64,000 nt of DNA from contig CALJIF010000041.1 in NCBI GenBank assembly GCA_937974275.1, forward strand, positions 36,498 to 100,497. Reading direction: 5' to 3'. Shown here one piece after another: positions 875 through 45,107 of the stretch. Within the stretch, counting starts at the first letter, position 1. Each line of letters starts with the position of its first letter. Source of the DNA: an uncultured Flavobacteriales bacterium (GTDB lineage: Bacteria > Bacteroidota > Bacteroidia > Palsa-965). The position numbers were made by a program, and so were the translations under genes. The notes under the pieces were generated by a model. It did no database searches. It worked only from the letters and a program-made list of their open reading frames with translations, and had not been told where the DNA came from.

Positions 875-1849
875 TTACCAGCCCAGTATCCATGCAAAAA
901 TCAGCGGAGCCACAATAGTAGCATCCGACTCCACAATGTATTTCGGAGTATGAATATCCAATTTGCCCCAGGTAATTTTTTCGTTCGGAACAGCACCTGA
1001 ATATGAACCGTAAGAAGTGGTTGAATCAGAAATCTGACAGAAATAAGACCAGAACGGAACATCATGCCATTCCAAATCCTGATACATCATTGGCACAACA
1101 CAAATAGGAAAATCTCCTGCAATACCACCACCAATCTGGAAGAATCCAACACCTTTTCCGGATGAATTCTTTCTGTACCAGTCGCTCAGCCAAACCATGT
1201 ACTCAATTCCGCTTTTCATGGTCGAAGCCTTGATTTCATTCTTAATGACATAAGAAGCGAAAATATTTCCCATGGTTGAATCTTCCCATCCCGGAACCAC
1301 GATCGGCAAATTCTTTTCTGCCGCAGCAACCATCCATGAGTTCTTCGGATCAATTTCGTAGTACTGTTCCAATACGCCCGAATTAATCATTTGATACATG
1401 AATTCGTGCGGGAAATAACGCTCGCCAGTATCATCGGCCTTTTTCCACAACGCGTGAATATGTTTTTGTAAACGACGGAATGCTTCCTCTTCGGGAATAC
1501 ATGTATCCGTAACACGATTAAGACCATTCTCCAAAAGCTGCCATTCTTCCTGTGGTGTTAAGTCGCGATAATTCGGAATACGACGATAGTGCGAATGTGC
1601 AACCAGATTCATCAAATCTTCTTCGAGGTTTGCACCGGTACAAGAAATGATTGCAATTTTATCCTGACGAATCATTTCTGCAAGAGAAACACCTAACTCA
1701 GCAGTGCTCATTGCACCTGCAAGAGAAACAAGCATTTTTCCACCTTCCAGCAAATGGGTTTCATAACCTTTAGCAGCGTCTTTTAAAGCAGCGGCGTTAA
1801 AATGACGGTAGTGATGTTCGATGAATTGAGAGATAGGTCCTTTGTTCAT
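875..1849 (-). CDS. Deoxyhypusine synthase-like protein (homospermidine/deoxyhypusine synthase family)
   Basis: 324 aa. Family-typical segments: ...ISCTGANLEEDL..., GGGIAGDFPICVVP, WGKLDIHTPKYIVESDATIVAPLIF. Confidence 0.8.
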   Translation of the reverse strand: MNKGPISQFIEHHYRHFNAAALKDAAKGYETHLLEGGKMLVSLAGAMSTAELGVSLAEMIRQDKIAIISCTGANLEEDLMNLVAHSHYRRIPNYRDLTPQEEWQLLENGLNRVTDTCIPEEEAFRRLQKHIHALWKKADDTGERYFPHEFMYQMINSGVLEQYYEIDPKNSWMVAAAEKNLPIVVPGWEDSTMGNIFASYVIKNEIKASTMKSGIEYMVWLSDWYRKNSSGKGVGFFQIGGGIAGDFPICVVPMMYQDLEWHDVPFWSYFCQISDSTTSYGSYSGAVPNEKITWGKLDIHTPKYIVESDATIVAPLIFAWILGW

Positions 1850-1947
1850 GATTGTAAAATATAATATTAGGCGGCAAAGGTAATATTTTACCGTCCCACT
1901 TGGTGTAACGAATAGTTCGGTGTAATTTCACACCATCTGCACAAGAT

Positions 1948-2154
1948 TTGATCATGAAACGGGGCACGGTAAAGTTCTTCAATCGCAAAAGCAAATTTGG
2001 CTTCATTAAAGATGATGAAACCGCACAGGAGTATTACGTGCATGTTAAAGATACGAAGACACCCATCGACGAAGGCGATCGTGTGGAATTTGAGATTAAA
2101 GACATGGCGCGTGGTCCTGCAGCCATCAATGTCACTAAAATCGAGAACCCGTAA
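1948..2154 (+). CDS. Cold-shock domain protein (CspA family)
   Basis: MKRGTVKFFNRKSKFGFIKDDE... carries the RNP1-like KGFGFI motif. A CSD is 68 aa. Confidence 0.85.
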   Translation: MIMKRGTVKFFNRKSKFGFIKDDETAQEYYVHVKDTKTPIDEGDRVEFEIKDMARGPAAINVTKIENP

Positions 2155-2220
2155 TTCAAACGGTTCATTTTTCTTAATAAAAACATAACAAACTTCGGTC
2201 TTCGGTTTCAAAATTTGAGT

Positions 2221-2228
2221 TAATTTTG
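2221..2228 (+). promoter_or_regulatory. Candidate Bacteroidota -7 promoter element (TAnnTTTG) upstream of the LTD gene
   Basis: Exact match TAATTTTG to the Bacteroidetes sigma-A -7 consensus, about 120 nt upstream of the ATG at 2349. The position is unusually far upstream, so confidence is low. Confidence 0.25.
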
Positions 2229-2348
2229 CTATCGTCTTAAGTGAACATCCTCTCCGGAGTTGCGTCTGCAACCGTCCGAAACCGCTTAAGAACGTTCAAT
2301 GCTAAATTGCATTTAACGCGGACACACAACAGTTTAAATTATACACAC

Positions 2349-3278
2349 ATGAAAAAAGCTCTACTGGCTCTTGCTGCGTTTGGTTTTATGGGAACAACCC
2401 AAGCGCAAACTACAGGTTGTAACGAATTATTCTTCTCAGAATATGTAGAAGGTTCTTCTCACAGCAAAGCACTTGAAATTTACAACCCAACCGCTAACCC
2501 GGTTAATCTGAACAACTATCGTTTAGTGCGTTACAGCAATGGATCTCCAACCGGTGTTGATAGCATAGCTTTGGTTGGAACTATTCCTTCTCGCGATGTT
2601 TGGGTGGTAGTGAACGGACAAGCAACACCGGATCAGAATGGCGCATTTTGTGATCCGGCTCTGATTGCATTGGGTGATCAGGTTGGTCCTGCGAACTATG
2701 CCAATGGCACAGCAGTGTTATACTTTAATGGTGATGATGCTATCGTTTTAGTGCGCATTCAGCCTTACGCAATTATCGACATTTTCGGAAAAATCGGCGA
2801 AGATCCCGGCGTATCATGGTCCGATGTATTCCCTTATACTGATGCCCAAGGCGCTTGGTGGACTCGTGATCATACGTTAATTCGTAAATCAACCGTTACA
2901 TCAGGTGTTACCGTAAATCCAACTGCATTTAACGTTACTGCAGAATACGATTCTTTACCTGAAAACACATGGACTAATTTAGGTCAGCACGATTGCGCTT
3001 GTAACACGGTGGGAATTGCAGAGAATGTAGCTAACGGTAAAGTAACTGTATTCCCGAACCCTGCTAATGGTCAAATTAATGTAGTTGCCGGCGTGAATAT
3101 CACTGATGTTACCATCTACAACGTACTTGGTCAGTCTGTTTTAGTTAAAGATTACGATGCTGCTGAACAAAAGACTGCACAAAAGATTGATTTAACCGGT
3201 TTCGCTCCGGGCGTGTACATGGTTGAAGTAAAAACTGCGAACGGAAAAGTGCAGGTAATTAAGATTACCCAGCGCTAA
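2349..3278 (+). CDS. Secreted lamin-tail-domain (LTD) protein with a type IX secretion C-terminal sorting domain
   Basis: Internal start MKKALLALAAFGFMGTTQAQ gives a clean signal peptide (track ORF 2241-3278). LTD-like core CNELFFSEYVEGSSHSKALEIYNPTANPVNLNNYRL. The C-terminus (VTVFPNPANGQINV ... VYMVEVKTANGKVQVIKI) is typical of a T9SS C-terminal domain. Confidence 0.7.
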   Translation: MKKALLALAAFGFMGTTQAQTTGCNELFFSEYVEGSSHSKALEIYNPTANPVNLNNYRLVRYSNGSPTGVDSIALVGTIPSRDVWVVVNGQATPDQNGAFCDPALIALGDQVGPANYANGTAVLYFNGDDAIVLVRIQPYAIIDIFGKIGEDPGVSWSDVFPYTDAQGAWWTRDHTLIRKSTVTSGVTVNPTAFNVTAEYDSLPENTWTNLGQHDCACNTVGIAENVANGKVTVFPNPANGQINVVAGVNITDVTIYNVLGQSVLVKDYDAAEQKTAQKIDLTGFAPGVYMVEVKTANGKVQVIKITQR

Positions 3279-3308
3279 TATCAAGAAGCTATACCCGCAC
3301 AAACCTGA

Positions 3309-3342
3309 AAAATGCTGATGGATCGTCATCAGCATTTTTTCT
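3309..3342 (+). terminator. Rho-independent terminator after the LTD gene
   Basis: aaaatgctgatg-gatcgt-catcagcatttt followed by TTTTCT. Confidence 0.6.
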
Positions 3343-3353
3343 GAACCTGTATT

Positions 3354-6230
3354 ATGAAAAAAGTAGCTGCATTTATTCTTTGTTTTTTATCCGTACAGTT
3401 GTTTGCACAATACACCGTTAGTGGTATTGTTAAGGATGATTCAAACGGCGAAGTATTGATTGGTGCTGTTGTAGTGGCAGATGGCGGAAAGGCTTTCGCT
3501 ACCACAGATGTTGATGGCTCCTATAAATTGCAATTGGCAGACGGTGATCACATCCTGACGATTCAATACTCAGGTTATGCAGCTAGTCCCGTTAAAATTA
3601 AGGTTGCGGGTAAAGCACTTACCGTTGACATTCCTGCGAAAAGCAATACGTTGAAAGAAGTTGAAATTGTTGCGGATGTAGCAATTGAACGTAAAACTCC
3701 GGTTGCCTTTTCGAACATCGGTGATGCTAAAATTCGCGAAGAAGGCGGGACACGTGATATTACCATGATGCTGAATTCAACGCCCGGAGCTTACGCAACG
3801 GAGCAAGGCGGCGGTGCCGGTGATTCACGCGTAAACATTCGCGGAATTGACCAGCGCAACGTTGCTGTTATGGTTGATGGTGTTCCCGTTAATGATATGG
3901 AAAACGGCCAGGTGTACTGGAGTAACTGGGACGGACTAGCGGATGTCACACGTACTATGCAAGTACAACGCGGTCTTGGAGCTTCTCGTTTGGCGATCCC
4001 GTCGGTAGGTGGAACAATCAACGTATTAACGAGAGGAATTGATCAGAAGCAAGCGTTTTCGTTACGTTCCGAATTTGGAAACAATAACGGACAGAAATAT
4101 TCATTCGGTTTTAACTCCGGAGAATTTGGGAAAGGATGGGGCGTTACATTAGCCGGAAGCCGCAGAACGGGCGATGGTTGGGCAGATCAAACATGGACTG
4201 ATTCGTGGTCGTATTTTATAAAAGTTCAAAAACGCTTTGGTGATCGTCACCTGGTGTCCATTGGGGCGAACGGAGCTCCACAATCTCACGGTCAACGTTC
4301 CGAACGATTACCGATTAGTGTTTACGATCGTGCTTATGCCGAAAAATTGGGAATCAACATAGATTCTTCTTATCAAAACAATGCTTACACCACGCCTTTT
4401 CAGGGCGAACGCGGTTTACGATTCAATTCACGCTGGGGTTATTTAAATTATCCCGATGGTCAGCAAGGTCGTTTCAATGAACGTATCAACTTCTACCATA
4501 AGCCGCAAATTACAGCACAACATTATTGGACAATTACAGAACGTTTGTCGTTATCTACAATCGTGTATTTGTCACTGGGAAATGGCGGAGGAACTTCGTT
4601 TAATTCCATTCCAAACAGAGATACCTTGACAGGCCTTCTGAATATCACAGCGCCTTACTTATCGAATTCCAGCAACATTGATGCACTATACAGCACAACA
4701 GAAACGAAATCGACACGCATTCTTCAAGCATCAATGAACAACCATTTTTGGTACGGTGGATTAAGTACGTTAACCTACAAAGCCAACGAGAAATTCTCTG
4801 CTATGTTAGGTATTGATGGACGCTCATACACCGGTTATCATTACCGCAAAGTGTATGATCTCGTTGGAGGAGATTACTTCGTTGATTTTTCGAATCGCAA
4901 TCAACCGAACGGAGTTGGCAATTTGCAATACGCCATGAAAGGATTGAACGATACGATTGGTTATTACAATGTTGGCTTGGTTAATTGGGGCGGTGTATTT
5001 GCTCAGGCCGAATATGTTTCCGGAAAATGGAGTACGTTCGTTACAGTAACAGGCTCTATGACTTCGTACCAGCGTGTAGATTACTTCCGCAAGAAAGATA
5101 TTGTCATGGATGACGGAACCGTAGTGGAACAGATTGTCGGATATAACGAAGTGTTGTATACGAATGGACAACAACAAGGCGTTGCAGCCAACGGAGCAGT
5201 AGTAACTGTTTCCGGTGATACGACGTTCATTAATAATCCCAGCGGTGCAGATTATGCAATTACGAATGCACAGTCGTATGCATGGGCATCTGACAAAGCT
5301 CGATTTGCGCAAACCGAACGTAAGTTATTCCCGGGTTTCACGGTTAAGAGCGGCGCAAACTACAACATCAACGATCATTACCGCGTATTCTTAAATGCAG
5401 GATACATGAACATGGCTCCGCGTTTCAATACCGTTTTTGATAACGCCAACCGCGAATATCCCGGTGTGAAGAATCAAAAAATATATGCAGTTGAAGTTGG
5501 CTCCGGTGCACGATTCAAAGGGTTTGCTGCAAACCTGAACTTATACTACACCTACTGGGAAAATAAGCCTCCTACATTCTCGCCTACCATTAACATTGCG
5601 GGTGATGTTTTCACATACGACCTGATTGGATTAACAACAATTCATAAAGGAGTTGAAGTTGATGCGAATTGGCAAGTCTGGAGAAATGTTCAGGCGGAGT
5701 TCTTGATGTCTATTGGAGATTGGGTAAACAATTCAGCAGGCATTGTGTACCTGTACGATCAAAACCTTATCCTGGAAGACACCATCGAATACAGCGGACG
5801 AGGTGTGCATGTTGGCGATGCGGCTCAAACACAAATCGGCGGATCGCTGCGCTGGGAACCTATTAAAGGAGCATACATTAAGGCTCGATTCACATACTTC
5901 GCGCGTAATTATGCCAATTTTGATCCGATTGCGTTAACTCCGGTTTATAACACGCAAGGTGATATTATTAGAGACAATCGCGATCGCGAATCCTGGGTGG
6001 CTCCAAGTTATGGGTTGCTGGATATTTTCGGTGGATTTGAAATACGCGACATCGTTCCGAAAGATGAGAAACGATTTAGTCGTGTTGGCTTTACATTTAC
6101 CATATTTAATGTTCTCAATACTAAATACATTACCGACGCACAAAATGGAGTTAACTTTGATGCTTCTACAGCATTGGTGTACATGGGTCAAGGACGACGT
6201 TGGAATGCCGGGATGCGTTTTAGTTTTTAA
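3354..6230 (+). CDS. TonB-dependent outer-membrane receptor (CarbopepD_reg-like N-domain + plug + barrel), not SusC/SusD-paired
   Basis: 958 aa. Signal peptide. N-terminal YTVSGIVKDDSNGEVLIGAVV (carboxypeptidase-regulatory-like domain), then plug region ...DITMMLNSTPGAYAT...VNIRGIDQRN...VDGVPVND. The C-terminal residue is F (…GMRFSF). Confidence 0.85.
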   Translation: MKKVAAFILCFLSVQLFAQYTVSGIVKDDSNGEVLIGAVVVADGGKAFATTDVDGSYKLQLADGDHILTIQYSGYAASPVKIKVAGKALTVDIPAKSNTLKEVEIVADVAIERKTPVAFSNIGDAKIREEGGTRDITMMLNSTPGAYATEQGGGAGDSRVNIRGIDQRNVAVMVDGVPVNDMENGQVYWSNWDGLADVTRTMQVQRGLGASRLAIPSVGGTINVLTRGIDQKQAFSLRSEFGNNNGQKYSFGFNSGEFGKGWGVTLAGSRRTGDGWADQTWTDSWSYFIKVQKRFGDRHLVSIGANGAPQSHGQRSERLPISVYDRAYAEKLGINIDSSYQNNAYTTPFQGERGLRFNSRWGYLNYPDGQQGRFNERINFYHKPQITAQHYWTITERLSLSTIVYLSLGNGGGTSFNSIPNRDTLTGLLNITAPYLSNSSNIDALYSTTETKSTRILQASMNNHFWYGGLSTLTYKANEKFSAMLGIDGRSYTGYHYRKVYDLVGGDYFVDFSNRNQPNGVGNLQYAMKGLNDTIGYYNVGLVNWGGVFAQAEYVSGKWSTFVTVTGSMTSYQRVDYFRKKDIVMDDGTVVEQIVGYNEVLYTNGQQQGVAANGAVVTVSGDTTFINNPSGADYAITNAQSYAWASDKARFAQTERKLFPGFTVKSGANYNINDHYRVFLNAGYMNMAPRFNTVFDNANREYPGVKNQKIYAVEVGSGARFKGFAANLNLYYTYWENKPPTFSPTINIAGDVFTYDLIGLTTIHKGVEVDANWQVWRNVQAEFLMSIGDWVNNSAGIVYLYDQNLILEDTIEYSGRGVHVGDAAQTQIGGSLRWEPIKGAYIKARFTYFARNYANFDPIALTPVYNTQGDIIRDNRDRESWVAPSYGLLDIFGGFEIRDIVPKDEKRFSRVGFTFTIFNVLNTKYITDAQNGVNFDASTALVYMGQGRRWNAGMRFSF

Positions 6231-6262
6231 TAATCATTGATACGTCAATTAATTACACACAC

Positions 6263-8452
6263 ATGAATAAACTATTTACCTCATTACTCGTTCTGGTAAC
6301 GGGTATTTTATTTGGTCAGGCCACGTTGCCCTCAACATGGAGCTTTACCACAACGTCATTCCCTGCAGGCTGGACAGCAACGGGAACAGGATTTTATACC
6401 GGCTCTGGAAATACGCCTCCGGCCTTGCGTTTGGATAACACCGGCGATAACCTTGTGATTTGGTATGCAGGATCTGCAGGCCCACTTACTTACTACATTT
6501 CGGGTAATAGTTTTTCAGGCGGCACTTTTGAAGTTCAGGAATCTGTAAATGGCAACACTTGGACAACATTACGTACGTTCACGACGAACATGCCAACCAA
6601 TTACACCATGTTTACGGATCAACCTGCTGCGGCAAGTCGTTATGTTCGGTTTAACTATACTCAAAAAAACAGTGGCAACGTAGGACTGGATGACGTAAGT
6701 ATTGCAGCACCTGCAGCGGGGCCTCAACAAGAAATCAATGTTTTGTATAGCGCACAAACTGTGCTATCCGGTGGTTCTATCTGGACGTCATCAGCTGTTA
6801 GTTCAACGACTTCATTAACGTTAACCGTTGAAAATTTAGGAACTCAGAATGCGTTAAACATTGCGTCCGCAGTTATCAGCGGAACTAATGCTTCCGAGTT
6901 TGTAATTCAATCTGCACCAAGTGTTGTTAATGCATTAAGCACAGGAAATATCGTAATTGACTTCACACCAACTGCAGCAGGAACACGCGTCGCTACATTA
7001 ACAATCACTAACGATGACAGCGATGAGGGTTCGTACGTAATTAACTTATTTGGAGCGGGTGGCGGATTGGCATCAGAACCAAACGCACCTACGAATTTAA
7101 ATTTCACGAACGTAAAGTCGTATCGTTTCCAAACCAACTGGACGGCTTCATCTCCCGCTGCTGATGGCTACATCGTATTGCGTAAAAATGGAAGTGCAGT
7201 AACTGATGTTCCTGTCGATGGTGCGTCATATACCGTTGGGGATTATATCGGAACAAGTCAGGTTGCATATGTTGGAACATCTACTACCACTTGGATCAAT
7301 TACGTTGGAGCATCTTCACAATATGGAATTGCCGTGTTCGCGTATAACGGTCCCGGAGCATTTCGCAACTACACCGATGGAAGTCCATTAGCAAATGTAG
7401 TATCCTCTTCCGGTTCCATGCAGCCGGCAAATTATTATAGCGGGATCAATACCTCTTCATCAACTTTTGTTAATGACCTTACCTTGCTGACCAATCCACA
7501 TACCGACCGCTTCTACAGCAATTACGGACCGTACATGGTTACGAAGTTCTGGGCACGTGACACCACCAACGGTCAGCGGGTTGTTACCTGTGTTTATTCC
7601 GGAGAGAACTTGGTTTATACAGAACCATTCGCATGGGTAACGTTCAGTCGTGAACATACGTATTCGTTCAGCTGGATGCCTTCTAATCCAAATACGAACA
7701 CACCTGAATACAGTGATTACTTCAATCTATATCCGGTTAATCAGGATGATGCCAACGCTGTTCGCAGCAATTATCCTTTGGGAGAAGTTGTTAACGTAAC
7801 CAACACCTATTTAGGAGCGAAATATGGACAAGACGCCAACGGACGCACGGTTTACGAACCACGAGATGATCAGAAAGGCGATGCGGCACGTTCAATGTTC
7901 TATATGGCAACCTGCTACAATAGCACAGTTGCAGACTGGAGTTTCCCGAATCCGATCAGCACTTCCATCATGTATGGTCAGGACCAGAATTTGTTAAAGG
8001 CATGGCATTATCAGGATTTACCGGATGCACGTGAAATCGCCAAGAATGATTACATCGACTCATTGCAGGGTAATCGTAATCCGTTTATCGATAGCGTAAA
8101 CTATGCTTGTTACATTGACTTCTACACGATGAACAAAATCAATGGCCCTACTTTACCATGCTCGAATTCTACGATCGGAATCAGTGAAGTAAATCAACAA
8201 CCTATTGTGCTTAATACCATGCCTAATCCTGCCGGAGACAATTTCATGTTGTACGTATCCGCATTGGAAAATAAAACCGGGGTATTACAGGTTGTTGATG
8301 TTCAGGGCAAAGTAATCGATGAACAGACCGTTGTCTTAAATTCAGGTACTTCTGCATTCAGTTTTGATTGCAAAAATTGGAATTCAGGCATGTACACGAT
8401 CCGTATTCAGACCGAAAATCAGGTATTTTTGACCAGAATGATCAAGAATTAA
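6263..8452 (+). CDS. Secreted Endonuclease I-family (EndA/Vvn-like) nuclease with a long Ser/Thr-rich N-terminal region and a T9SS C-terminal domain
   Basis: The C-terminal half aligns by eye with E. coli EndA motifs: REHTYSFSWMP ~ VEWEHVVPAW, LGEVVNVTN ~ VGEVNGDRGN, GDAARSMFYMATCY ~ GAIARTYFYMRDQY, QGNRNPFIDSVNYAC ~ QGNHNPYVQRAC. The last ~90 aa are T9SS-C-terminal-domain-like (VLNTMPNPAGDNFMLYV...GMYTIRIQTENQVF). Confidence 0.7.
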   Translation: MNKLFTSLLVLVTGILFGQATLPSTWSFTTTSFPAGWTATGTGFYTGSGNTPPALRLDNTGDNLVIWYAGSAGPLTYYISGNSFSGGTFEVQESVNGNTWTTLRTFTTNMPTNYTMFTDQPAAASRYVRFNYTQKNSGNVGLDDVSIAAPAAGPQQEINVLYSAQTVLSGGSIWTSSAVSSTTSLTLTVENLGTQNALNIASAVISGTNASEFVIQSAPSVVNALSTGNIVIDFTPTAAGTRVATLTITNDDSDEGSYVINLFGAGGGLASEPNAPTNLNFTNVKSYRFQTNWTASSPAADGYIVLRKNGSAVTDVPVDGASYTVGDYIGTSQVAYVGTSTTTWINYVGASSQYGIAVFAYNGPGAFRNYTDGSPLANVVSSSGSMQPANYYSGINTSSSTFVNDLTLLTNPHTDRFYSNYGPYMVTKFWARDTTNGQRVVTCVYSGENLVYTEPFAWVTFSREHTYSFSWMPSNPNTNTPEYSDYFNLYPVNQDDANAVRSNYPLGEVVNVTNTYLGAKYGQDANGRTVYEPRDDQKGDAARSMFYMATCYNSTVADWSFPNPISTSIMYGQDQNLLKAWHYQDLPDAREIAKNDYIDSLQGNRNPFIDSVNYACYIDFYTMNKINGPTLPCSNSTIGISEVNQQPIVLNTMPNPAGDNFMLYVSALENKTGVLQVVDVQGKVIDEQTVVLNSGTSAFSFDCKNWNSGMYTIRIQTENQVFLTRMIKN

Positions 8453-8478
8453 GGTCGGATAAAGCTCTTAAAAATGTT

Positions 8479-8512
8479 AAAATGCGTCTCTTCGGAGGCG
8501 CATTTTATTTTT
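8479..8512 (+). terminator. Rho-independent terminator after the nuclease gene
   Basis: aaaatgcgtctc-ttcg-gaggcgcatttt followed by ATTTTT. Confidence 0.6.
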
Positions 8513-8667
8513 CACTAATACCTGAATAACAAGACATTACGCTTCTTTAGCCTTGCGATAAGGAGTTATAAACAATGTCGTGTGGCTCAAATTTTACTTG
8601 TTTTTTTGGTTTGAAACCTTAATTTAGCGCGTCTTAAAAAATAGAACAGTCTTCAACACACTACAAT

Positions 8668-9894
8668 TTGCATATAATCCGATATATCCCCCTGTTGTTC
8701 CTGTTGGTTTTATTAACCGGAACATTATCCGGCTTTAGACCGGGAGATCCTCCGGCTGCAGTTCGGGCGGAACTTGCTGTAAATGATACAGCGGAAGCAA
8801 CAGACGATCATCCTACAATAACTTCGGACACCTCAGGACCTGCCACTGCGACAATTGCAGTAACTGATCCTCCGGCAAAGAAAACAACCACAGAACCGGA
8901 TCACGACGAAGAAGGTCATGTTCACGGTGATGAAGAAGAGGATGATTTTGACACTACCTCCGTTCACATGGAGAAGTTTGATGCTCTGGCATTCAACGAT
9001 ACGGTTATGTTGTTGTTGAATGATCCTCAACATTGCGGATATGTTCATCCGTTTAATGGCTATGTTACTTCTAACTTTGGATTCAGAAAATCCCGCTATC
9101 ACTTTGGCGTTGACATTAAGTTAAATACAGGTGACTCCGTAGTTAGTTGCTTTGACGGCAAAGTGCGCATTGCTCAATACAGTAAAACGTATGGCAATTT
9201 GGTTGTTGTTCGTCACGCGAATGGACTGGAAACGTATTACGCACACTTATCCAAACTTTTGGTAAAAGTTGGAGATGATGTTGAAGCCGGAACTCTTGTT
9301 GGACTTGGCGGAAACACAGGTCGTTCGTTCGGAGCGCATTTGCATTTCGAAGTGCGTTACAAAGGACAGCCGATCAACCCGAACTACATTATTGATTTCG
9401 AAAAGAAATGTATTCGTACTAACGCTTATCCGCTTTGCAAATCTGATTTCAAGTATTTATCAGAAACACACAAAGTGGTGCGTCGTTCCCGAAAGAGTAA
9501 AAAGACGTATGTAACGTATTATACTCCGGGCGGTCCAAAATACGCCACTAAAGAAGCAAAAGCGATCATGGCTGTAGTTCCTGATCCAGTGATGCCTAAT
9601 ACGGATCCCAATTTGGTTCCTGACGGTTCTAAGACGCCTATTCAGGTTAAACCTCAACCTACACCAACAACATCCAACCCCAATACAGGTGTTAAGCCGG
9701 CTCCGAACGGTAAAACAACAACACCACCTGCCAATAAATCAGGTGCAGGAGCAAAAACATATGTGGTGAAAAAAGGCGACACCTTGGGAGCTATTGCTGC
9801 ACGTAATAACACAACAGTCGACAAGTTGTGCCAATTAAACGGGATCAAGAAGACTGCAATTCTTCAGATTGGTCAGAAGCTTCGCGTGAAGTAA
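8668..9894 (+). CDS. M23 family metallopeptidase with a C-terminal LysM domain
   Basis: HFGVDIKLNTGDSV...GNTGRSFGAHLHFEVRYKG is an M23 motif. C-terminal YVVKKGDTLGAIAARNNTTVDKLCQLNGIKKTAILQIGQKLRV is LysM. A Pro/Thr-rich linker lies between them. Confidence 0.8.
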   Translation: MHIIRYIPLLFLLVLLTGTLSGFRPGDPPAAVRAELAVNDTAEATDDHPTITSDTSGPATATIAVTDPPAKKTTTEPDHDEEGHVHGDEEEDDFDTTSVHMEKFDALAFNDTVMLLLNDPQHCGYVHPFNGYVTSNFGFRKSRYHFGVDIKLNTGDSVVSCFDGKVRIAQYSKTYGNLVVVRHANGLETYYAHLSKLLVKVGDDVEAGTLVGLGGNTGRSFGAHLHFEVRYKGQPINPNYIIDFEKKCIRTNAYPLCKSDFKYLSETHKVVRRSRKSKKTYVTYYTPGGPKYATKEAKAIMAVVPDPVMPNTDPNLVPDGSKTPIQVKPQPTPTTSNPNTGVKPAPNGKTTTPPANKSGAGAKTYVVKKGDTLGAIAARNNTTVDKLCQLNGIKKTAILQIGQKLRVK

Positions 9895-9899
9895 TTCCG

Positions 9900-12023
9900 T
9901 TACATTACGAAATCCTTTTCCTTCCACTGAAACTGCCTTGATCGAGCATTATAGTAAGCGAACTTACTATTTCGTTCCACGCGGTAAATTGTACCCGATA
10001 CGAGCGCTATCTTGTCCCAAACAGGCTGTAGTAAAATAGTACCCGATACGTCTGCAAGTCCTTTGCCGGAATCAGACTCAAGAGCTAAATAATTTGTAGC
10101 GATGTGATCAATACTGTTGTATGTGGCGGGCAAAATCCATTTACCACGCGCATCAATACAACCCACCAAACCATCTTTGCGAACACGCGCAACACCATCA
10201 GTGAATGACCATGCGTATTCATAATCGTAAGGGATTACCAGCTTCACCTGTTGATCAATAAATCCCCATTTTCCTTTCTTCTTTATCGGACAACGATTGT
10301 CAGCGAAAAAACCGACATCTTCATATTCTCTCGCTAGCACCGACTTGCCTGCCGTATCTATGATTCCCAATTTATTTTCAAGCAGGACTTTTGCGGTGCC
10401 GTGTTTGAATGAATTATCCCCTAACAACGCGCGATTATAATCGTACTTCATAGGAATTACCAATTCACCTGCACGATTGATATAACCGCAACTACCGTCT
10501 TGCACAACCAATGCACGATTATCACTGAACTCACCAATGAACTCATACTCGCATGCAGTAATGTACTTGCCTTCAGTATCTATTAATCCGAACAAATCGT
10601 TCTTCTGAACACGAGCAATTCCATTATTGAATTTGCCAACCCATTCATAAATAGTCGGAACTACTATTTTCCCGTAACGATCAATAAAACCGTAACCTGT
10701 GGAATCTTCTACGTACGCCAATCCTCCTGAAAAATCACCGCCCTTTTCGAACATGCAGCGTACCACTTCTTTCCCGGTTTGATCAATGTAACCGTGCTTA
10801 CCATTTCGCTCAACTCCTGCTCTGCCTTCAGAGAACTCGTAAATGGCATCATATTCAACCGGAACAATTAAAAATCCGGCTTTGTCTACAAGACCGAATT
10901 TCCGATTCAACTCTACAACAGCAACGCCTTTTCGAAATGAACTAACTTCATCATATTGAACCGGCACTAATAATTTGTTGCGCTTATTGATAAAACCGGC
11001 TTTCCCGTTTTTGCCAACTGCCGCCGCCCCTTCCTGAAAAACTTCAACCCATTCGTACTCACATGGAATTAGCACAGCTCCTGTGCTATCCGCAAAGCCC
11101 CAAAGTCCGTCTTCGCGTACCGGAAAAAATTCCGTCATCGACAAACGCAGATCTTCCGTTATCGTTTCTTTAAACGGAAAGTCAGGGTAATCAATCCAAA
11201 ATTGTGCAATGGTAGTTGAGGAACCATCCGCGGTGTACAAGCTGTATAACTTCATCCAGGCCTCGTCTCTATTACGATTGGTGGGATGTTTTCGGATAAA
11301 GGCACGGTAAGAATCAATATCCATTCCGCCCACAGACAATTTAAAAACGGCATCCTCTGCAACTCCTCGATACGGGCTTTCGGGATATTCAGCAACAAAA
11401 ATTTCATATGCCATTAATGAGCTATCCGCGGTTTTCGTTTCAAATAATACGCGATCGTAACGCGATTGGGCTTCCGAAAACAATAAGGACTTTGGATAAC
11501 GAAGCATAAAGTCATTATACGCCTCGTACGAATTAATTTTTTCCGCATCACGAAAAGCAAATGCATCACGGTTAACGATTGCAACAGAATCCCATCGCGA
11601 ATTGCAATGAATTTCGAGATAATTCTCCATCGCGGCCACTGTCGCTGTTTGCAAGGCTTGGGCTAATGCAACGGAATCAATTTGTGCTTCTAAATTTTTA
11701 ATAGCATTAAAATCAACACCCAACTTCAGCAAACGTTTTTTTTGTGCAGAAGAACTATTGGGATAAGAAAATTTCGCGGACAAGATTTGATTATGCGCAC
11801 GCGTATTATCCGAAAACGGGTTATCTCTTCGATGATAAATCAGCGCAAGACCATAACCACTTCCGGCCGGTTGACGCTTACTGCATTGTTGTAATAGTTT
11901 CCGTGCTTTGAAATAATCGTAACGTTCCAATGCATCGTAAGCGCGCTCTAATGTCCCGGCAAAAACACGAGAGGCACAGACAAGGAAACAAATTACAATT
12001 ACGATACGATTAAGCACGTCCAA
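9900..12023 (-). CDS. Large secreted WG-repeat (KWG) containing protein
   Basis: 707 aa. Signal peptide. The C-terminal two-thirds consists of more than 10 tandem WG repeats (…WGFADSTGAVLIPCEYEWV…, KFGLVDKAGFLIVPVEYDAI…, KHGYIDQTGKEVV…). Confidence 0.75.
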   Translation of the reverse strand: MDVLNRIVIVICFLVCASRVFAGTLERAYDALERYDYFKARKLLQQCSKRQPAGSGYGLALIYHRRDNPFSDNTRAHNQILSAKFSYPNSSSAQKKRLLKLGVDFNAIKNLEAQIDSVALAQALQTATVAAMENYLEIHCNSRWDSVAIVNRDAFAFRDAEKINSYEAYNDFMLRYPKSLLFSEAQSRYDRVLFETKTADSSLMAYEIFVAEYPESPYRGVAEDAVFKLSVGGMDIDSYRAFIRKHPTNRNRDEAWMKLYSLYTADGSSTTIAQFWIDYPDFPFKETITEDLRLSMTEFFPVREDGLWGFADSTGAVLIPCEYEWVEVFQEGAAAVGKNGKAGFINKRNKLLVPVQYDEVSSFRKGVAVVELNRKFGLVDKAGFLIVPVEYDAIYEFSEGRAGVERNGKHGYIDQTGKEVVRCMFEKGGDFSGGLAYVEDSTGYGFIDRYGKIVVPTIYEWVGKFNNGIARVQKNDLFGLIDTEGKYITACEYEFIGEFSDNRALVVQDGSCGYINRAGELVIPMKYDYNRALLGDNSFKHGTAKVLLENKLGIIDTAGKSVLAREYEDVGFFADNRCPIKKKGKWGFIDQQVKLVIPYDYEYAWSFTDGVARVRKDGLVGCIDARGKWILPATYNSIDHIATNYLALESDSGKGLADVSGTILLQPVWDKIALVSGTIYRVERNSKFAYYNARSRQFQWKEKDFVM

Positions 12024-13876: not shown

Positions 13877-14881
13877 CTAATATGTCCCATTTTGCTCTTC
13901 AGGAGGAGCAATACGCACCATCATTCCGGGGGTTAAGCGCACATAACCTTCCCAGCCGTTCCAGGCTTTCAACTGTTTAATAGAAACCGCATAACGTTGC
14001 GAAACTTTACTGAGATTATCGCCTTTTTTCACCAGATGCGTACATAGGCCAACAGGATGCACGGCATATCCGTAGCGTGTTCGGATCAACTCGATCTTGT
14101 TTGCATTTAGCTTTCTGGTGTCCCAATCAATAATAAAATACGGATCGATAGCAACGCCCCTGAAACGCATTTCGAAATGTAAATGAGTGCCGGTAGAATG
14201 TCCCGTTGAACCACCAAGCCCCAGCAACTGTCCGCTCGTAACGATATCACCCGGCTTCACCTTTATTTTCCACAAATGCGCATAAACGGTTTCCAATCCG
14301 TTGTAATGTCGCACAATGACAACATTACCATAGCCTCCACCTCGTCCTGCAAACCGCACCATTCCGCCGAAAGCACTTCTTACCGTATCGCCGCGATTCA
14401 AATCGATATCAATTCCGCGATGAAAAGCAGAATCACGGTATCCATACTTTGAAGTTACCACTCCGGAAAACGGATAGGTAAAATCACCACTAATCTGTGG
14501 CGATAAATCCAGTTCCGTAATTTGCTCGGATTTATACAGTGAATCGCGATAGGGAAACAATATGGTCGTATTCCAAACACCATAAAAGCGGTGCGCAGGC
14601 CAGAATGCAAAACCCGATTGAAACTGATTTTTAGGATTCATGGCATTCAATTCGTCGAGGCGTGTTCTGATTGCCACAAAAGCACAGGAATCTTTCGTAC
14701 CCGATTCAAACAGCGAATCCAGCATGAGTATCAATTCGGGTTCACTCAACTCATAAATTGAACCTGTTTCATACCCATGGTGTCCATCATCAAAGACGAC
14801 AGTAGAATCCTGTCCGAACAGCGGTGACAAGTTCAGGGTCGACAAGAAGATGACGACTATACCGAATAGACGATGACGCAT
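13877..14881 (-). CDS. M23 family metallopeptidase with a C-terminal LysM domain (paralogous architecture to 8668-9894)
   Basis: FHRGIDIDLNRGDTV...GSTGHSTGTHLHFEMRFRG is M23. C-terminal HLVKKGDNLSKVSQRYAVSIKQLKAWNGW...LTPGMMVRI is LysM. N-terminal signal peptide. Confidence 0.8.
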   Translation of the reverse strand: MRHRLFGIVVIFLSTLNLSPLFGQDSTVVFDDGHHGYETGSIYELSEPELILMLDSLFESGTKDSCAFVAIRTRLDELNAMNPKNQFQSGFAFWPAHRFYGVWNTTILFPYRDSLYKSEQITELDLSPQISGDFTYPFSGVVTSKYGYRDSAFHRGIDIDLNRGDTVRSAFGGMVRFAGRGGGYGNVVIVRHYNGLETVYAHLWKIKVKPGDIVTSGQLLGLGGSTGHSTGTHLHFEMRFRGVAIDPYFIIDWDTRKLNANKIELIRTRYGYAVHPVGLCTHLVKKGDNLSKVSQRYAVSIKQLKAWNGWEGYVRLTPGMMVRIAPPEEQNGTY

Positions 14882-40526: not shown

Positions 40527-42440
40527 ATGAAAAAAGTATATACACTGGTTGCTGCGTTGATGTTAGCCTGGGGCGTTTATGCTCAGGCACCAGCCAGTAT
40601 CAAGTACCAGGGTGTAGCTCGTAACTCAACTGGAGCACCAATTGCTAACGGCACAATCACGGTACAATTTGATATTCACAGCGGTTCTGCTTCAGGCCCT
40701 GTAGTATGGACAGAAACTCACACAGGTGTTACAACCAACCAGTTTGGTTTGTTCAACATCAACATGGGTTCGATCACCGCAGGTTTAGATACTGTATTCT
40801 CTGCAGGTCAGGAATTTTTGGAAGTATCCGTTGACTTCGGTACAGGTTTAACTTCCATGGGAACTTCACAGTTCTTATCAGTTCCTTATGCATTGTACGC
40901 ACAAAACTCAGCGAATCCGGGTCCACAAGGTCCTGCAGGTCCACAAGGTCCTTCAGGTGATCCTGGCGTTGCAGGTCCAACTGGTCCTTCAGGTGATCCG
41001 GGCTTGACAGGTCCAACAGGTCCTCAGGGCGATCCGGGAATTGCAGGTCCGACAGGTGCAACAGGTGACACAGGTCCTACAGGAGCAGTTGGCGCAACAG
41101 GTGATATCGGACCAACAGGAGCGCAAGGTCCTATTGGATTAACAGGTGCAACGGGTCCGCAAGGAGCTAACGGGGCGACCGGGGCAACCGGTGCAGCTGG
41201 AGCTAACGGAGCAACCGGTCCGGTTGGTCCTACAGGTTTAACAGGTGCTGCGGGTCCTGCAGGTCCTACCGGTGCTAATGGAGCTAACGGTGCAACGGGT
41301 GCTACAGGAGCTACAGGTGTTACAGGTCCAACAGGCCCGGGCGGCGTAACAGGAACAACAGGTTACCATCCTAAGTTCCTTTCGGCTAACACACTTGGTA
41401 ACTCTATCATGCAAGAGAACACGAATGGTAACATTGGTGTTAATATTTCACCACTAATCCAGTATCGCATGTACGTTTATTCTCAACAATTGACAGCAAA
41501 CGGTGATGGACAAACTACATTGTTTGGCTATCGTACGCGCGACTCCCAAAACGACGGAACAGGTTATGCGCAGTCTGTAGCAAACGACGCTACTCGCGGA
41601 TTCAACTTCTGGGGTGACCTCTATACATTTGGCGTTGGTGGTTGGAACTATAACGACTACACTCGTTGCGGTGGTACATTAGGTGCCGAAGTTTCAGGAA
41701 CCTATTGGGGCTCTATGGGCTACAGAAGTTCAGGATTGCTGAATTATGGTGTTTATGGAACGTCTGCTTACGCTAACGGTGGTGGTCGCATGGCGAACGG
41801 CAACTTCAATGGTATTGGTGGCGCATTCTACGGCGATATGATGGGTGGTTGGGTTCGCGGTGATATCGCAGGTTTAACTACTATGGGTTCTATGTATGCT
41901 GCTTTGAACGTAGGTAACACATACAACTACGGTTACCATGCAGATCTTGTGAACACAGGTGCTGCTATCACTCCTGCTTACGCGGTTACTTCTACTACTG
42001 TAAAAGTATACGACGACGGTTCCGCTCAATTGAACAACGGCACTATTCGTGTAAACTTTACTCCTGAATACGCTGCATTAATTAAAGGAAACGGTAAGCC
42101 GACTATTACTGTTACTCCACAGGGTCAGTGCAACGGTTTGTACATTGTTTCTGTTGACGAAAACGGTTTCAACGTAGCTGAATTGAATAACGGTTCATCT
42201 AATGTTGAATTCTCTTGGATCGCTGTTGGTAAGCGTGTTGACGCTGCACAGAACAGCACTCCTGAGCAGTTGACAAACCGTAACTTCGCTGAAAACATTC
42301 AGGGTGTTATGTTCAATGAAGGTAACACTTCACAGTCCGGAACTCCAATGTTCTGGAATGGTACTAGCTTCCAGTTCACTCCTGCTCCTGTTGCTCCGAA
42401 AGGGCCAAAAATTGAGCCGGGCGTAGCTCCTAGAAACTAA
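40527..42440 (+). CDS. Collagen-like triple-helix repeat protein with a Bacteroidota adhesin/tail-fibre-like N-terminal domain and a Gly/Tyr/Asn-rich C-terminal domain
   Basis: Signal peptide. N-domain [41 protein letters not shown].... About 50 uninterrupted G-X-Y triplets ([28 protein letters not shown]...), then a ~360-aa G/Y/N-rich region. Confidence 0.8.
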
Positions 42441-42621: not shown

Positions 42622-43542
42622 ATGAAGCAACTTATTCTTTTTATTTCTGCTTGCATTGCTCAAATCTGCACAGGTCAATCTGTTGCACCAACCGTTAGCA
42701 CCTCATACTTCCAATATGTCGTACAAACTCTTGCGCATGATTCAATGCAAGGTCGCTTACCGGGAACACATGAGGAAAAAGTTGCAGCGAATTTCATCGC
42801 ACAAGAATTTCAAAAGGCCGGTTGCGCTCCTGTAAAAGAGAATCAATGGCTATTCCCCTTCACCTATGTAAACCCGGACACCGCTCTCGTTCAATCAGCA
42901 GGAAATGTAATTGGTAAAATAGAAACCAAACATAAAAAGTGCATCGTTGTATCTGCTCATTATGACCATATCGGTTACGGCAAATTCCACTCCAAGGATC
43001 CGTTCTCCAGAAAAATTCATAACGGAGCAGATGATAATGCCAGCGGTGTTGCCATGATGTTAGGACTCGCGGCTTATTGTAAAACCAAAATCGACCAACT
43101 TCAGTATGACGTCATCTTTGTCGCATTCTCCGGAGAAGAAGATGGTCTTTGGGGTGCACTAGCATTACTACAGCAAAATATCATTGATACGTCAACAATT
43201 GTTGCAAACATTAATTTGGACATGGTAGGTCGCTTAGATATACTAACGCCTATTTTGGAAATTCAAACCAAACACGCAGGTTCCTGTATTTTCCAAGTTG
43301 CACAAACAGTTAAGTCGGATAAATTCAAAACAATTGTTGCGGAAGACAAAGTGCGCTTCGGCTCAGACCATGCTATTTTTAATGAAAACAGGATTCCTGC
43401 GATACTCGTTTCTACCGGACTTGGCAGTCACTACCACCGCCCCAGCGATGATGCCGCGACCATCAACTATAGCGGCATGATGGCTATCGCTGCGGAAATT
43501 CAAAAACTTATTCTAAACGGAGAACTACTCCGTTGTCAGTAA
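42622..43542 (+). CDS. M28 family zinc aminopeptidase (secreted)
   Basis: Signal peptide MKQLILFISACIAQICTG. HYDHIGYG, GADDNASGVAMML, FSGEEDGLWGA are M28 metal-ligand motifs. Confidence 0.75.
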   Translation: MKQLILFISACIAQICTGQSVAPTVSTSYFQYVVQTLAHDSMQGRLPGTHEEKVAANFIAQEFQKAGCAPVKENQWLFPFTYVNPDTALVQSAGNVIGKIETKHKKCIVVSAHYDHIGYGKFHSKDPFSRKIHNGADDNASGVAMMLGLAAYCKTKIDQLQYDVIFVAFSGEEDGLWGALALLQQNIIDTSTIVANINLDMVGRLDILTPILEIQTKHAGSCIFQVAQTVKSDKFKTIVAEDKVRFGSDHAIFNENRIPAILVSTGLGSHYHRPSDDAATINYSGMMAIAAEIQKLILNGELLRCQ

Positions 43543-45107
43543 ACAATAATTTGTTTAGACTTTCGGGAAGTACCTGTATTCAGGCTAATCGTATAGGTGC
43601 CCGCAGGCATATCTGCAGTCGCAATTTCCATACGATACATTCCTGCACCTTGAGCTCCTCTATTCCACTCTTTAACCAAACGCCCATTTTGATCAAACAG
43701 TTGTAATACTACCGAACTATTCTGAGGAATGAAATAACTCACATTAACAGGAGTATTACCCGCTGTCGGAACAGGGTAAGGATCGTATAACTGAGGTGTT
43801 CGAATAATGTTCTGATAGGCGTTTTGTTGAACAGAATTCAATACTACGCTATCAATAATTATATTTTCATCACCTGCCTGATAAGGCAAATACGCGTAAT
43901 AGATCACCATCATTTCATCATCCGTAGCTTCGCCCGCAGTAACCAATTGCGGAGGATTATTCGGATTGTTCGGATTATTCGCAGTGTTGTCGTAATACGC
44001 ACTTGCATAAACCACGCTGTTTCCGGGAATCACGACAGGCTGCCGGTAAGTGTAAAATCCTTGCCAGTGAAAATTCCAATCAGGAATACTGATCAATGGT
44101 ATGGTATCTCCGGATGGATCTACAGCCCATGACCAAATCGACTTACCGATCAAATGCATGTGCGGAGCAACACTTATCAATGTTAAAGGTGAAGAGACAG
44201 CCACCTGCGCGTTAAACGTACGCGTTGTATTCGCAGGAATAACAAGAGGTCCATTGGTTAATGATGTGGTGTGATTGATAGCCGGCGCTAAAGTCACATT
44301 ACGAACTACTCCGCTTGAAAAAGTAAATCGCACATGAGTACTGTCGGTCTGATTAAACGTACCGGACGGATAATGAATTTGCATAATGATGTAACTGTTC
44401 GCTTCCAGTTTGATACCCATATTTGGCGGCAGTTCATAAACACCTTGACCAGGAACCCAACCCGCTATAAGTGTTGCAGTATTTGAACCTACACCACCAA
44501 AACTGGTATACCCCGGCCCCGGATCATTATTATCCAATGTCACGCAAGTATTCTGCACATCCTGATACACGAGCACGTGGTGTACAATCGGTCTGTTTCC
44601 CGGAACAACTTCAACTTTAGTTATGTATTCATCTTGCGTAATACCTGATGGTACAACAAAACAACGGTACAAATCTGTGGCAGTATTCACGGTGTACGTT
44701 TGCATTTGAGCAGACAAATCCGGATTCGTAATAGCTGGTCCTGCTGTATAAGTTGGCGCCGGCGGAGCATTCGCAATGTTTCCCGATGGAAATCCTGCAG
44801 TTACCCAATTATCAATCGTTGTTATTTCCTGCTGTGTTAAAGCTCGTTCATGGGCAAATCTGGTATATGCGGTATCAGGAGGCCATGGCGGCATTCTGCG
44901 CATAGTTACCGCATTCTGAATATTTGGTGCAACATTAGCTGCATCGTTATAGGTAATCAATGAAAATGGTGCAATACCGCCCGGATGGTGACAATTGGTA
45001 CATTTCCCGTAAAGAATATTCGCCACATCATCTGCCCATGTCGGACTCTGAGCATCTACAGTAGAAGCAATAGTTGCAAGAACAGCAACGAGTAAAAACT
45101 TTTTCAT
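43536..45107 (-). CDS. Secreted copper type II ascorbate-dependent monooxygenase-like (PHM/DBH-like) protein with an N-terminal CxxCH motif and a T9SS C-terminal domain
   Basis: CuH-like IVHHVLVY + MQIHYP. CuM-like APHMHLIGKS + EATDDEMMVIYYAY (compare PHM HTHHLGK and TTDEMC). NFHWQGFY is also PHM-like. N-terminal ILYGKCTNCHHPGG. C-terminal T9SS domain (SVVLQLFDQNGRLV...GTYTISLNTGTSRKSKQIIVY). Confidence 0.65.
   Translation of the reverse strand: MKKFLLVAVLATIASTVDAQSPTWADDVANILYGKCTNCHHPGGIAPFSLITYNDAANVAPNIQNAVTMRRMPPWPPDTAYTRFAHERALTQQEITTIDNWVTAGFPSGNIANAPPAPTYTAGPAITNPDLSAQMQTYTVNTATDLYRCFVVPSGITQDEYITKVEVVPGNRPIVHHVLVYQDVQNTCVTLDNNDPGPGYTSFGGVGSNTATLIAGWVPGQGVYELPPNMGIKLEANSYIIMQIHYPSGTFNQTDSTHVRFTFSSGVVRNVTLAPAINHTTSLTNGPLVIPANTTRTFNAQVAVSSPLTLISVAPHMHLIGKSIWSWAVDPSGDTIPLISIPDWNFHWQGFYTYRQPVVIPGNSVVYASAYYDNTANNPNNPNNPPQLVTAGEATDDEMMVIYYAYLPYQAGDENIIIDSVVLNSVQQNAYQNIIRTPQLYDPYPVPTAGNTPVNVSYFIPQNSSVVLQLFDQNGRLVKEWNRGAQGAGMYRMEIATADMPAGTYTISLNTGTSRKSKQIIVY

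Follow-up and report, generated by a model that had tools for sequence, protein, structure and literature searches.

To date, the only DNA-utilisation loci to have been defined are those of gut Bacteroidales, and one bird pathogen requires a related outer-membrane pair for its transformation. In Bacteroides thetaiotaomicron, the six genes ddbABCDEF, described as resembling a polysaccharide utilisation locus (PUL), are required for the depletion of exogenous DNA (Sharan et al., PNAS 2025, PMC12478041), and their products are three nucleases, the TonB-dependent transporter (TBDT) DdbC, the DUF5689 protein DdbD, which is predicted to bind DNA, and DdbE (PMC12478041). DdbC and DdbD are homologous to RA0C_RS04915 and RA0C_RS04920 (PMC12478041), both of which are indispensable for the natural transformation of Riemerella anatipestifer (PMC8459023), and the Bt- and Pv-type DdbC proteins share only ~25% identity with each other (PMC12478041). 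In Flavobacterium johnsoniae, Fjoh_4721 and Fjoh_4723 (fn3, lamin-tail domain (LTD) and Endonuclease_1) are induced by phosphate depletion with log2 fold changes of 4.7 and 4.1, respectively, and are found in the exoproteome (PMC8115612), and Fjoh_4723, or NucA, is a proven type IX secretion system (T9SS) substrate (PMC10994853). Here, we analysed a 64,000-nucleotide (nt) stretch of DNA from an uncultured Flavobacteriales bacterium (contig CALJIF010000041.1), which as a whole is denoted as the window, and compared three of its genes, named g1, g2 and g3, with these systems. The triad, defined from its open reading frames (ORFs) and their domains, is as follows:

2349-3278, + strand: g1, secreted LTD protein, 309 amino acids (aa)
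3354-6230, + strand: g2, TonB-dependent outer-membrane transporter, 958 aa
6263-8452, + strand: g3, secreted Endonuclease I nuclease, 729 aa

We propose, with a probability of roughly 0.6, that the triad captures and cleaves extracellular nucleic acid at the cell surface and imports the fragments through TonB-powered transport. The original prediction, made from the DNA alone, had read the locus as a surface system for binding, digestion and import of DNA, and this reading is supported computationally by the domains, the strict synteny and the link of the transporter to nuclease loci. It had also taken the locus type to be undescribed. TBDT-centred DNA-utilisation loci of Bacteroidota were described in September 2025, and the kind of system, with DNA-uptake loci counted in, has been known since 2021-2025; the variant built from T9SS, LTD and Endonuclease I is undescribed, and full-text literature searches found no description of such a conserved triad in environmental lineages.

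Dissolved and particle-bound DNA forms a large pool of phosphorus (P) and nitrogen (N) in lakes, where Bacteroidota are major degraders of polymers. If the proposal is true, the triad would be a genomic marker of DNA foraging in environmental Bacteroidota, would link the T9SS to TonB-dependent import and would give bacterial lamin-tail domains their first concrete job.

Domains and folds of the three proteins

Profile checks with Pfam and NCBIfam back the LTD, Endonuclease_1, Plug and T9SS C-terminal domain (CTD) assignments that had been made from the sequence. In g1, a signal peptide is followed by the LTD (residues ~23-146; PF00932, 48.9 bits against a Pfam cut-off of 34.3), a low-confidence stretch (147-230) and a T9SS type-A CTD (234-302; Por_Secre_tail, 50.8 bits in Pfam; TIGR04183, 46.1 bits in NCBIfam). 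The N-terminus of g1 also aligns with ExeM 24-179 (NCBIfam, E 2e-19). The AlphaFold2 (AF2) model of g1 had a predicted local distance difference test score (pLDDT) of 75.9, with values of 85-94 for LTD residues 25-146 and a confident CTD. In Foldseek searches, the LTD fold matched the tails of lamins A and B1 (1IFR, 3UMN and 3GEF) with a probability of 1.0 and the CTD superposed on that of RemA in the translocon (8GL6_D, TM 0.81), and nothing besides lamin Ig folds and T9SS CTDs was returned. The sequence itself served to assign the signal peptides of g1 and g3, which in neither case are followed by a lipoprotein cysteine, and both proteins carry T9SS CTDs.

The nuclease g3 is composed of a signal peptide, a galactose-binding-like (F5/8-type-C-like) module at residues ~20-160, an Ig-like choice-of-anchor-D/ASH module at 171-270, an fn3-like module at 275-365, the Endonuclease I domain at ~381-640 and a T9SS CTD at 654-726. 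The two defining assignments of the original prediction hold for this protein as well, with Endonuclease_1 (PF04231) at 104.6 bits over residues 461-611 against a Pfam cut-off of 25, and the CTD at 41.8 bits for Por_Secre_tail and 46.2 bits for TIGR04183. The long N-terminal extension had been described as Ser/Thr-rich, and its first 380 residues do contain 24% Ser and Thr; it is not, however, a low-complexity linker but a row of three folded beta-sandwich modules.

To place the catalytic domain among known structures, single-sequence and profile comparisons were used. A phmmer search of the Protein Data Bank (PDB) with g3 alone gave no match. The profile of 33 g3 orthologues reached Vvn (1OUP, E 1e-9) and structures of Vibrio EndA, the matches being 1OUP, 1OUO, 2PU3 and 2G7E, and its C-terminal part matched the NucA CTD that is resolved in the F. 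johnsoniae T9SS translocon (8glk_D). The motifs R463-E464-H465 and N498-A-V-R501-S502-N503 are present in g3, the region of N498 aligns with the Vvn structure, and R463, H465, D485, N498, R501 and S502 are invariant in 33 of the 33 orthologues. We take His465 and Asn498 to be the equivalents of the Vvn general base His80 (E-H motif) and metal ligand Asn127 (N-x-x-R-S-N), respectively. We propose that g3 is an EndA/Vvn-family endonuclease of the beta-beta-alpha-Me type that is non-specific and depends on Mg2+, and from its residue pattern we expect it to be active. RNA, too, is cleaved by enzymes of the Endonuclease I family.

The transporter g2 contains a signal peptide, a CarboxypepD_reg-like domain (22-103; CarbopepD_reg_2, 45.6 bits), a plug (113-220; Plug, 50.5 bits, both in Pfam) and a beta-barrel (~221-958), the last of which was matched by no Pfam barrel model. 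A TonB-box-like EVEIVADV was found by eye at residues ~102-109, and its E102, V103 and D108 are conserved. The AF2 model is a plug-and-barrel TBDT with a predicted template modelling score (pTM) of 0.73 and barrel pLDDT of 80-92, and Foldseek against the PDB identified a generic TBDT fold (E 1e-28) with 10-15% identity to all solved TBDTs. The SusC/RagA model TIGR04056 gave 69 bits against a cut-off of 368 and covered residues 21-181 only, and no SusD-like ORF was found near g2 in the ORF list or by Pfam. The Pfam results and the ORF survey therefore agree with the predicted receptor that has a carboxypeptidase-regulatory-like N-domain and a plug and lacks a SusD partner.

In a tblastn search of PLSDB, g2 was 37% identical to a Phocaeicola massiliensis TBDT over 600 residues (E 2e-108) and 29% identical over the remaining barrel. 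The corresponding Phocaeicola locus (loci L083 and L086-L088; P. massiliensis and gut metagenomes) encodes this 900-aa transporter, a 627-aa choice-of-anchor-J/DUF5017 protein and a 463-aa Exo_endo_phos (EEP) nuclease. The 627-aa protein is annotated like RA0C_RS04920, but DUF5689 was not detected in it, and the locus, judged from its gene content, fits the published description of the Pv-type ddb, in which a DdbC homologue is accompanied by nucleases. Rather than falling with siderophore or B12 receptors, a placement that would have pointed to other substrates, g2 groups with the transporter of the Phocaeicola nuclease locus.

Two further features of g2 were observed. The AF2 model has a beta-rich insertion of ~65 residues in the barrel region (residues ~581-643, window 5094-5282), and the ~910-aa orthologues of the Crocinitomicaceae/Fluviicola type are ~50 residues shorter overall. 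With regard to the Phocaeicola locus, the 21-kb PLSDB record OY726028.1, labelled 'plasmid 54' and unannotated, has chromosomal-looking housekeeping genes and is probably a chromosomal contig.

Synteny, operon signals and likeness to known loci

Relatives of g2 were collected by a scan at one genome per species, which gave 311; 80 loci with transporter identities from 97% to 44% were retained, and their synteny was analysed by tblastn of the window proteins and by clustering of the ORFs. Counting only loci with at least 1.1 kb of upstream flank for the LTD gene and at least 2.4 kb of downstream flank for the nuclease gene, we found the former upstream of the transporter in 71 of 71 and the latter downstream of it in 57 of 57. 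Only three ORF clusters are ubiquitous, namely the transporter (80 loci), the LTD protein (77) and the nuclease (69), and all absences of the LTD or nuclease gene coincide with contig ends. After these, a deoxyhypusine-synthase-like gene is the commonest neighbour, with 25 loci, and the M23/LysM and WG-repeat genes that flank the triad in the window are lost below ~60% transporter identity. Because only these three families are ubiquitous and the flanks change, the triad is a self-contained module that has no conserved fourth gene, and its conservation in relatives, which the original prediction had left to be checked, is clear from the two complete counts and the turnover around them.

Independent gene calls gave the same Pfam triad in two closed metagenome genomes of 4.8-4.9 Mb. 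Most hosts are uncultured members of the Bacteroidia, Flavobacteriales, Crocinitomicaceae and Fluviicola from freshwater, and the nearest record is a metagenome-assembled genome (MAG) from Lake Mendota (locus L001, 97% identity). The family of g2 is so large that a protein homologue search gave at least 120 matches, all of those listed with at least 50% identity. Related transporters and LTD proteins were detected by the thousand, and the triad is common in freshwater metagenomes. We also noted triad records with conflicting titles. The complete genome CP034120.1 (L046), titled Glaciecola amylolytica, a gammaproteobacterial name, bears a Bacteroidota triad with T9SS CTDs, and triads occur in MAG contigs that go under the names of Synechococcus, Akkermansia or Chitinophaga pinensis (L010, L054, L067 and L074); these records are likely mislabelled or mis-binned.

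The ORF coordinates, the ATG chosen for g1 and the intergenic gaps of 75 nt (g1-g2) and 32 nt (g2-g3) were reproduced exactly as first reported. Three transcription signals accompany the genes:

2221-2228, + strand: Bacteroidota-type -7 promoter box TAATTTTG (consensus TAnnTTTG), an inferred promoter from the sequence and a pattern search
3307-3340, + strand: stem-loop of 15 bp between g1 and g2, terminator- or attenuator-like, whose 3' arm is a U-tract
8478-8507, + strand: strong, intrinsic-terminator-like hairpin of 13 bp with a T-run, closing the operon 3' of g3

The hairpin that had been placed in the first gap is thus real, and the folding energy (dG) of the gap is -18 kcal/mol. Of 77 related loci, 57 have a hairpin with a dG of -10 or below that lies no more than 100 nt from the stop codon of the LTD gene. 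The clade closest to the window has such a hairpin in 36 of its 38 loci, with a T-rich tail in 31, and between clades the structure is kept while the sequences are unrelated. A pattern search of the window found no TAnnTTTG box between the 3307-3340 hairpin and g2. The simplest reading of the hairpin after g1 suggests attenuation or differential mRNA stability, and for this reason the LTD protein would be the most abundant product. Judged from the layout, g1-g3 most likely make up a single, autonomous operon-like unit. A second TAnnTTTG box, TAACTTTG at 6152-6159 (+), was noted in the 3' end of g2, ~110 nt before the start codon of g3, and by its sequence might serve the nuclease gene as an internal promoter.

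Compared with the ddb locus, the window shares a TBDT of the CarboxypepD_reg and Plug type, a secreted nuclease and a non-enzymatic surface protein, and with them the apparent PUL-like logic of binding, cutting outside and importing. The window differs from ddb in that it has no DUF5689 partner and no signal peptidase II (SPII) lipoproteins, and its two accessory proteins carry T9SS CTDs instead. Furthermore, its nuclease is an Endonuclease I on beta-sandwich modules, its partner protein is an LTD protein, it has three genes rather than six, and its hosts are free-living in freshwater. The Riemerella pair is similar to the window in that the barrel is known to standard models only via CarboxypepD_reg, in that a surface protein and a nuclease adjoin it, and in that exogenous DNA is involved. 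Its partner protein, in contrast, consists of choice-of-anchor J, DUF5689 and DUF5017, and the function shown for it is transformation.

EndA1 and EndA2/NucA of F. johnsoniae resemble g3 as long, T9SS-secreted Endonuclease I enzymes with fn3. In these proteins the LTD is fused into the nuclease, the genes are listed as 'orphan' and no transporter is reported, whereas in the window the LTD protein is separate and probably over-expressed, and the transporter gene lies between the two. The beta-beta-alpha-Me core of g3 with its His and Asn is shared by Vvn, Escherichia coli EndA, Vibrio cholerae Dns and Shewanella EndA, the last of which is needed for the use of DNA as a P source, and ExeM and Xds are LTD-bearing nucleases, with ExeM resembling the N-terminus of g1. 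Unlike the window, however, the EndA/Vvn enzymes are single-domain proteins of ~230 aa and ExeM is an EEP nuclease; these systems have no T9SS cargo and no co-encoded dedicated TBDT. SusC/SusD PULs share with the window a surface binding protein, a surface hydrolase and a TonB-dependent importer, but the window has no SusD, g2 fails the SusC/RagA model, and the substrate would not be a glycan.

Plasmid p1 of Flammeovirga kamogawensis, a cultured member of the Cytophagales (L132, NZ_CP076130.1 185007-195235, KM029_RS25055-RS26970), carries a co-directional, ddb-like cluster whose products are two EEP nucleases, a TBDT and two DUF5689 proteins, the first composed of DUF5689+DUF6359+LTD and the second of DUF5689+Endonuclease_1. 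The Endonuclease_1 catalytic core of the latter is 37% identical to that of g3, the REH motif included, and the receptor had no Pfam match at E 0.001. In contrast with the window, the LTD and Endonuclease_1 are each fused to DUF5689, a T9SS CTD was not detected, and the transporter is ~24% identical to g2. In this cluster, therefore, the signature domain of DdbD is fused to both of the domain types that are separate in the window, and it is so beside a transporter.

Proposed function and competing explanations

In the proposed mechanism, g1 and g3 would be exported by the T9SS and either attached or released at the outer surface. There, g1 would replace the DUF5689/choice-of-anchor-J lipoprotein partner of related transporters, and would capture the substrate, possibly via divalent cations, or dock nuclease and substrate at the transporter. 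With its three beta-sandwich modules as spacers or binding modules, g3 would cut DNA, and probably RNA too, to fragments that g2, energised by TonB, would move over the outer membrane into the periplasm, where housekeeping nucleotidases and phosphatases encoded elsewhere would free phosphate, nucleosides and bases. We further propose that g1 would be made in excess, because the hairpin would attenuate read-through into g2 and g3, and that the structured 5' leader described below, which is common to other T9SS cargo genes, would control expression.

Several results weigh against this mechanism. Without its CTD, mature g1 (residues 22-230, window 2415-3038) is acidic, with a pI of 4.3 and a net charge of -13, and its orthologues are equally acidic (median pI 4.3); because of this acidity, simple electrostatic binding of DNA by g1 is not obvious. 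The LTD of ExeM is not needed for DNA degradation (PMC6085458). DUF5689 was found in neither g1 nor g3 by Pfam at E 10, and hhalign of DUF5689 against the family profiles gave probabilities below 1%. The link of g2 to the DdbC/RA0C_RS04915 family is indirect, as it runs via one Phocaeicola intermediary and, from there, via the description of its locus. A Persicobacter homologue with 33% identity to g2 has no nuclease neighbour, which means that not every relative at ~33% identity is linked to DNA. The 64-kb window contains no Pho gene and none for a periplasmic nuclease, nucleotidase or phosphatase, and the leader RNA, found ahead of many T9SS cargo genes, lacks specificity for DNA genes. Finally, B. 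thetaiotaomicron grew poorly on DNA as the sole carbon, N or P source (PMC12478041), and for this reason nutrition is not proven even in the model system.

The role of g1 is the weakest link of the model, and a nucleic-acid-holding function of its LTD is hypothetical. The nuclease domain of g3 was found to be acidic too (pI 4.7), which was unexpected for proteins thought to hold DNA; both proteins may bind through bridging cations or may have a partner other than DNA. DUF5017 and choice-of-anchor J were not detected in g1 or g3 by hidden Markov model (HMM) searches, and the Phocaeicola partner, aligned by hhalign with the profiles of g1 and g3, gave a negative result. Homology of g1 or g3 to the ddb-type partner proteins was therefore rejected, Pfam at E 10 and hhalign both being negative.

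The same machinery could instead serve as the outer-membrane DNA-uptake step of natural transformation, in which long DNA would pass on to ComEC and DprA and the nuclease would make ends or trim. A probably homologous type of transporter, beside a nuclease, is essential for natural transformation in Riemerella (PMC8459023; PMC12478041). The window organism is, moreover, nearer to the Flavobacteriales than to gut Bacteroidales. On the other side, the partners in the window contain neither DUF5689 nor choice-of-anchor J, the closest characterised nucleases, EndA1 and EndA2 of F. johnsoniae, belong to the phosphate-starvation response, and domain scans of the window ORFs found no competence genes nearby. 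Endonuclease I enzymes are also aggressive, non-specific nucleases, and Vibrio Dns antagonises transformation. Considering these points, we regard transformation as an unlikely purpose of the triad, and nutrition and transformation are not mutually exclusive fates of the DNA.

Alternatively, the transporter's real substrate might be a small molecule or some other polymer, phosphorylated or anionic, such as extracellular RNA, polyphosphate or phospho-glycans, and the nuclease would then mainly clear or remodel an extracellular DNA matrix in biofilm, particle attachment or escape from traps. The acidity of the LTD protein and the activity of Endonuclease I enzymes on RNA would agree with this, as would the effect of ExeM on biofilms and the related CarboxypepD_reg and Plug transporters of F. 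johnsoniae that adjoin a phytase (Fjoh_1368). A transporter for unrelated cargo, however, would not be expected to stay between the LTD and nuclease genes in 71 of 71 and 57 of 57 loci across lineages, and depletion of DNA needs the ddb locus, of which the probably related DdbC is part; we find this explanation rather improbable. The U-tract hairpin that splits g1 from g2 could make g1 its own transcription unit, and the three surface-protein genes might then be independent and their adjacency coincidental or historical. Such a coincidence is very hard to reconcile with perfect synteny amid the turnover of all flanks, with the short gaps and the lack of a promoter box between g1 and g2, and with the same domain types being fused and clustered in Flammeovirga. 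Taken together, capture, cleavage and import of nucleic acid is the function that we prefer for the triad.

Leader RNA upstream of g1 and surrounding genes

A conserved element lies 13-105 nt before the LTD start codon in the related loci. It emerged from a k-mer search for shared upstream signals that had begun as a search for a Pho box. We know of no established Pho-box consensus in Bacteroidota. No Pho box is mentioned by Lidbury et al. In the window, the element was modelled as a structured RNA:

2233-2293, + strand: structured 5' leader RNA motif of ~60 nt (covariance model R1, 40 bits, E 1e-6)
2236-2243 paired with 2283-2290, + strand: stem P1 of the leader, from covariation
~2256-2278, + strand: P2 of the leader, a variable hairpin

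The leader is arranged in the order P1 (GAAGYG/CRCUUC), the 11-nt 5' junction AACAYCCUAYA, which is AACAUCCUCUCC in the window, P2, which varies in sequence and length, the 3' junction GAAAC and P1'. In the 25-sequence seed, P1 was 80% paired, compared with 34-45% when the partner was slid, and five of its pairs showed double changes; the P1 covariation score of this seed was matched by 0 of 500 shuffles. The covariance model found 40 motif sites in related loci, all in the sense orientation and directly upstream of an LTD or another T9SS gene, with one tandem pair. A pattern scan of Joint Genome Institute (JGI) metagenomes added 43 loci with 54 model matches and at least seven tandem pairs. 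Copies of the leader besides that of the window lie at L018:2503-2565, at L037:1071-1135 and 1145-1211 and in L089-L131. Among 49 distinct metagenome copies, P1 was 96% paired against 9-51% when slid (33-51% for slides by one or two columns), and AU, GC, UA and CG were all seen at the outermost P1 pair, which the search pattern had left free. The P2 hairpin was present in 82 of 87 distinct copies, with a median z of -2.7.

A TAnnTTTG box lies within 45 nt upstream in 71 of 94 leader copies, at a median of 14 nt before P1, which places the leader at the very 5' end of the transcript; in the window, TAATTTTG is 7 nt ahead of the P1 stem. G-U pairs are frequent in P1 and fit a sense-strand RNA. 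That the conserved blocks are a DNA promoter or operator was considered and rejected, as the P1 and P2 sequences change with the pairing kept, as G-U pairs are seen and as the element has a -7 box upstream. The genes downstream of the leader start 6-193 nt past the motif, and a T9SS CTD of type A or CHU_C was found in 10 of the 10 that were scanned, of which five have an LTD and others SprB or PKD repeats. The leader is thus a well-supported candidate for a cis-regulatory RNA of T9SS cargo genes, enriched for LTD proteins, as judged from pairing and gene context.

The leader model detected no copies in the Crocinitomicaceae/Fluviicola-type loci L041-L071, in a few of which variants are visible by eye. 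Rfam 15 had no match at E <= 1 in window 1800-8800 and none overlapping the motif in five other loci, and neither a literature search nor a Flavobacterium transcriptome paper yielded a description of the leader. As a candidate regulatory RNA that has no Rfam match and is tied to T9SS cargo genes, it forms a lead separate from the triad. We also considered a broader idea, namely that a T9SS-delivered LTD protein, not a lipoprotein, serves as the capture partner of a TBDT and, jointly, that the leader represents a new ligand- or factor-responsive class of RNA, riboswitch-like and often in tandem, that co-regulates LTD-rich T9SS cargo across Bacteroidota; this combination is possible but doubtful.

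The rest of the window consists of housekeeping genes, among them rpoB/rpoC, ValRS, an IcmF-like mutase and peptidoglycan peptidases, and none of the 28 neighbouring ORFs was otherwise related to DNA or phosphate. The following neighbours were annotated:

8668-9894, + strand, and 13877-14881, - strand: Peptidase_M23+LysM paralogues, flanking the WG-repeat gene
9900-12023, - strand: WG-repeat protein, 707 aa
28347-31730, - strand: fused MeaB, B12-binding and methylmalonyl-CoA-mutase (IcmF-like) gene
40527-42440, + strand: 637-aa protein with collagen triple-helix repeats
43536-45107, - strand: copper type II monooxygenase-like protein with a T9SS CTD

The leader motif is absent upstream of the monooxygenase gene. 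The first M23 gene and the WG-repeat gene adjoin the triad in the closest relatives only.

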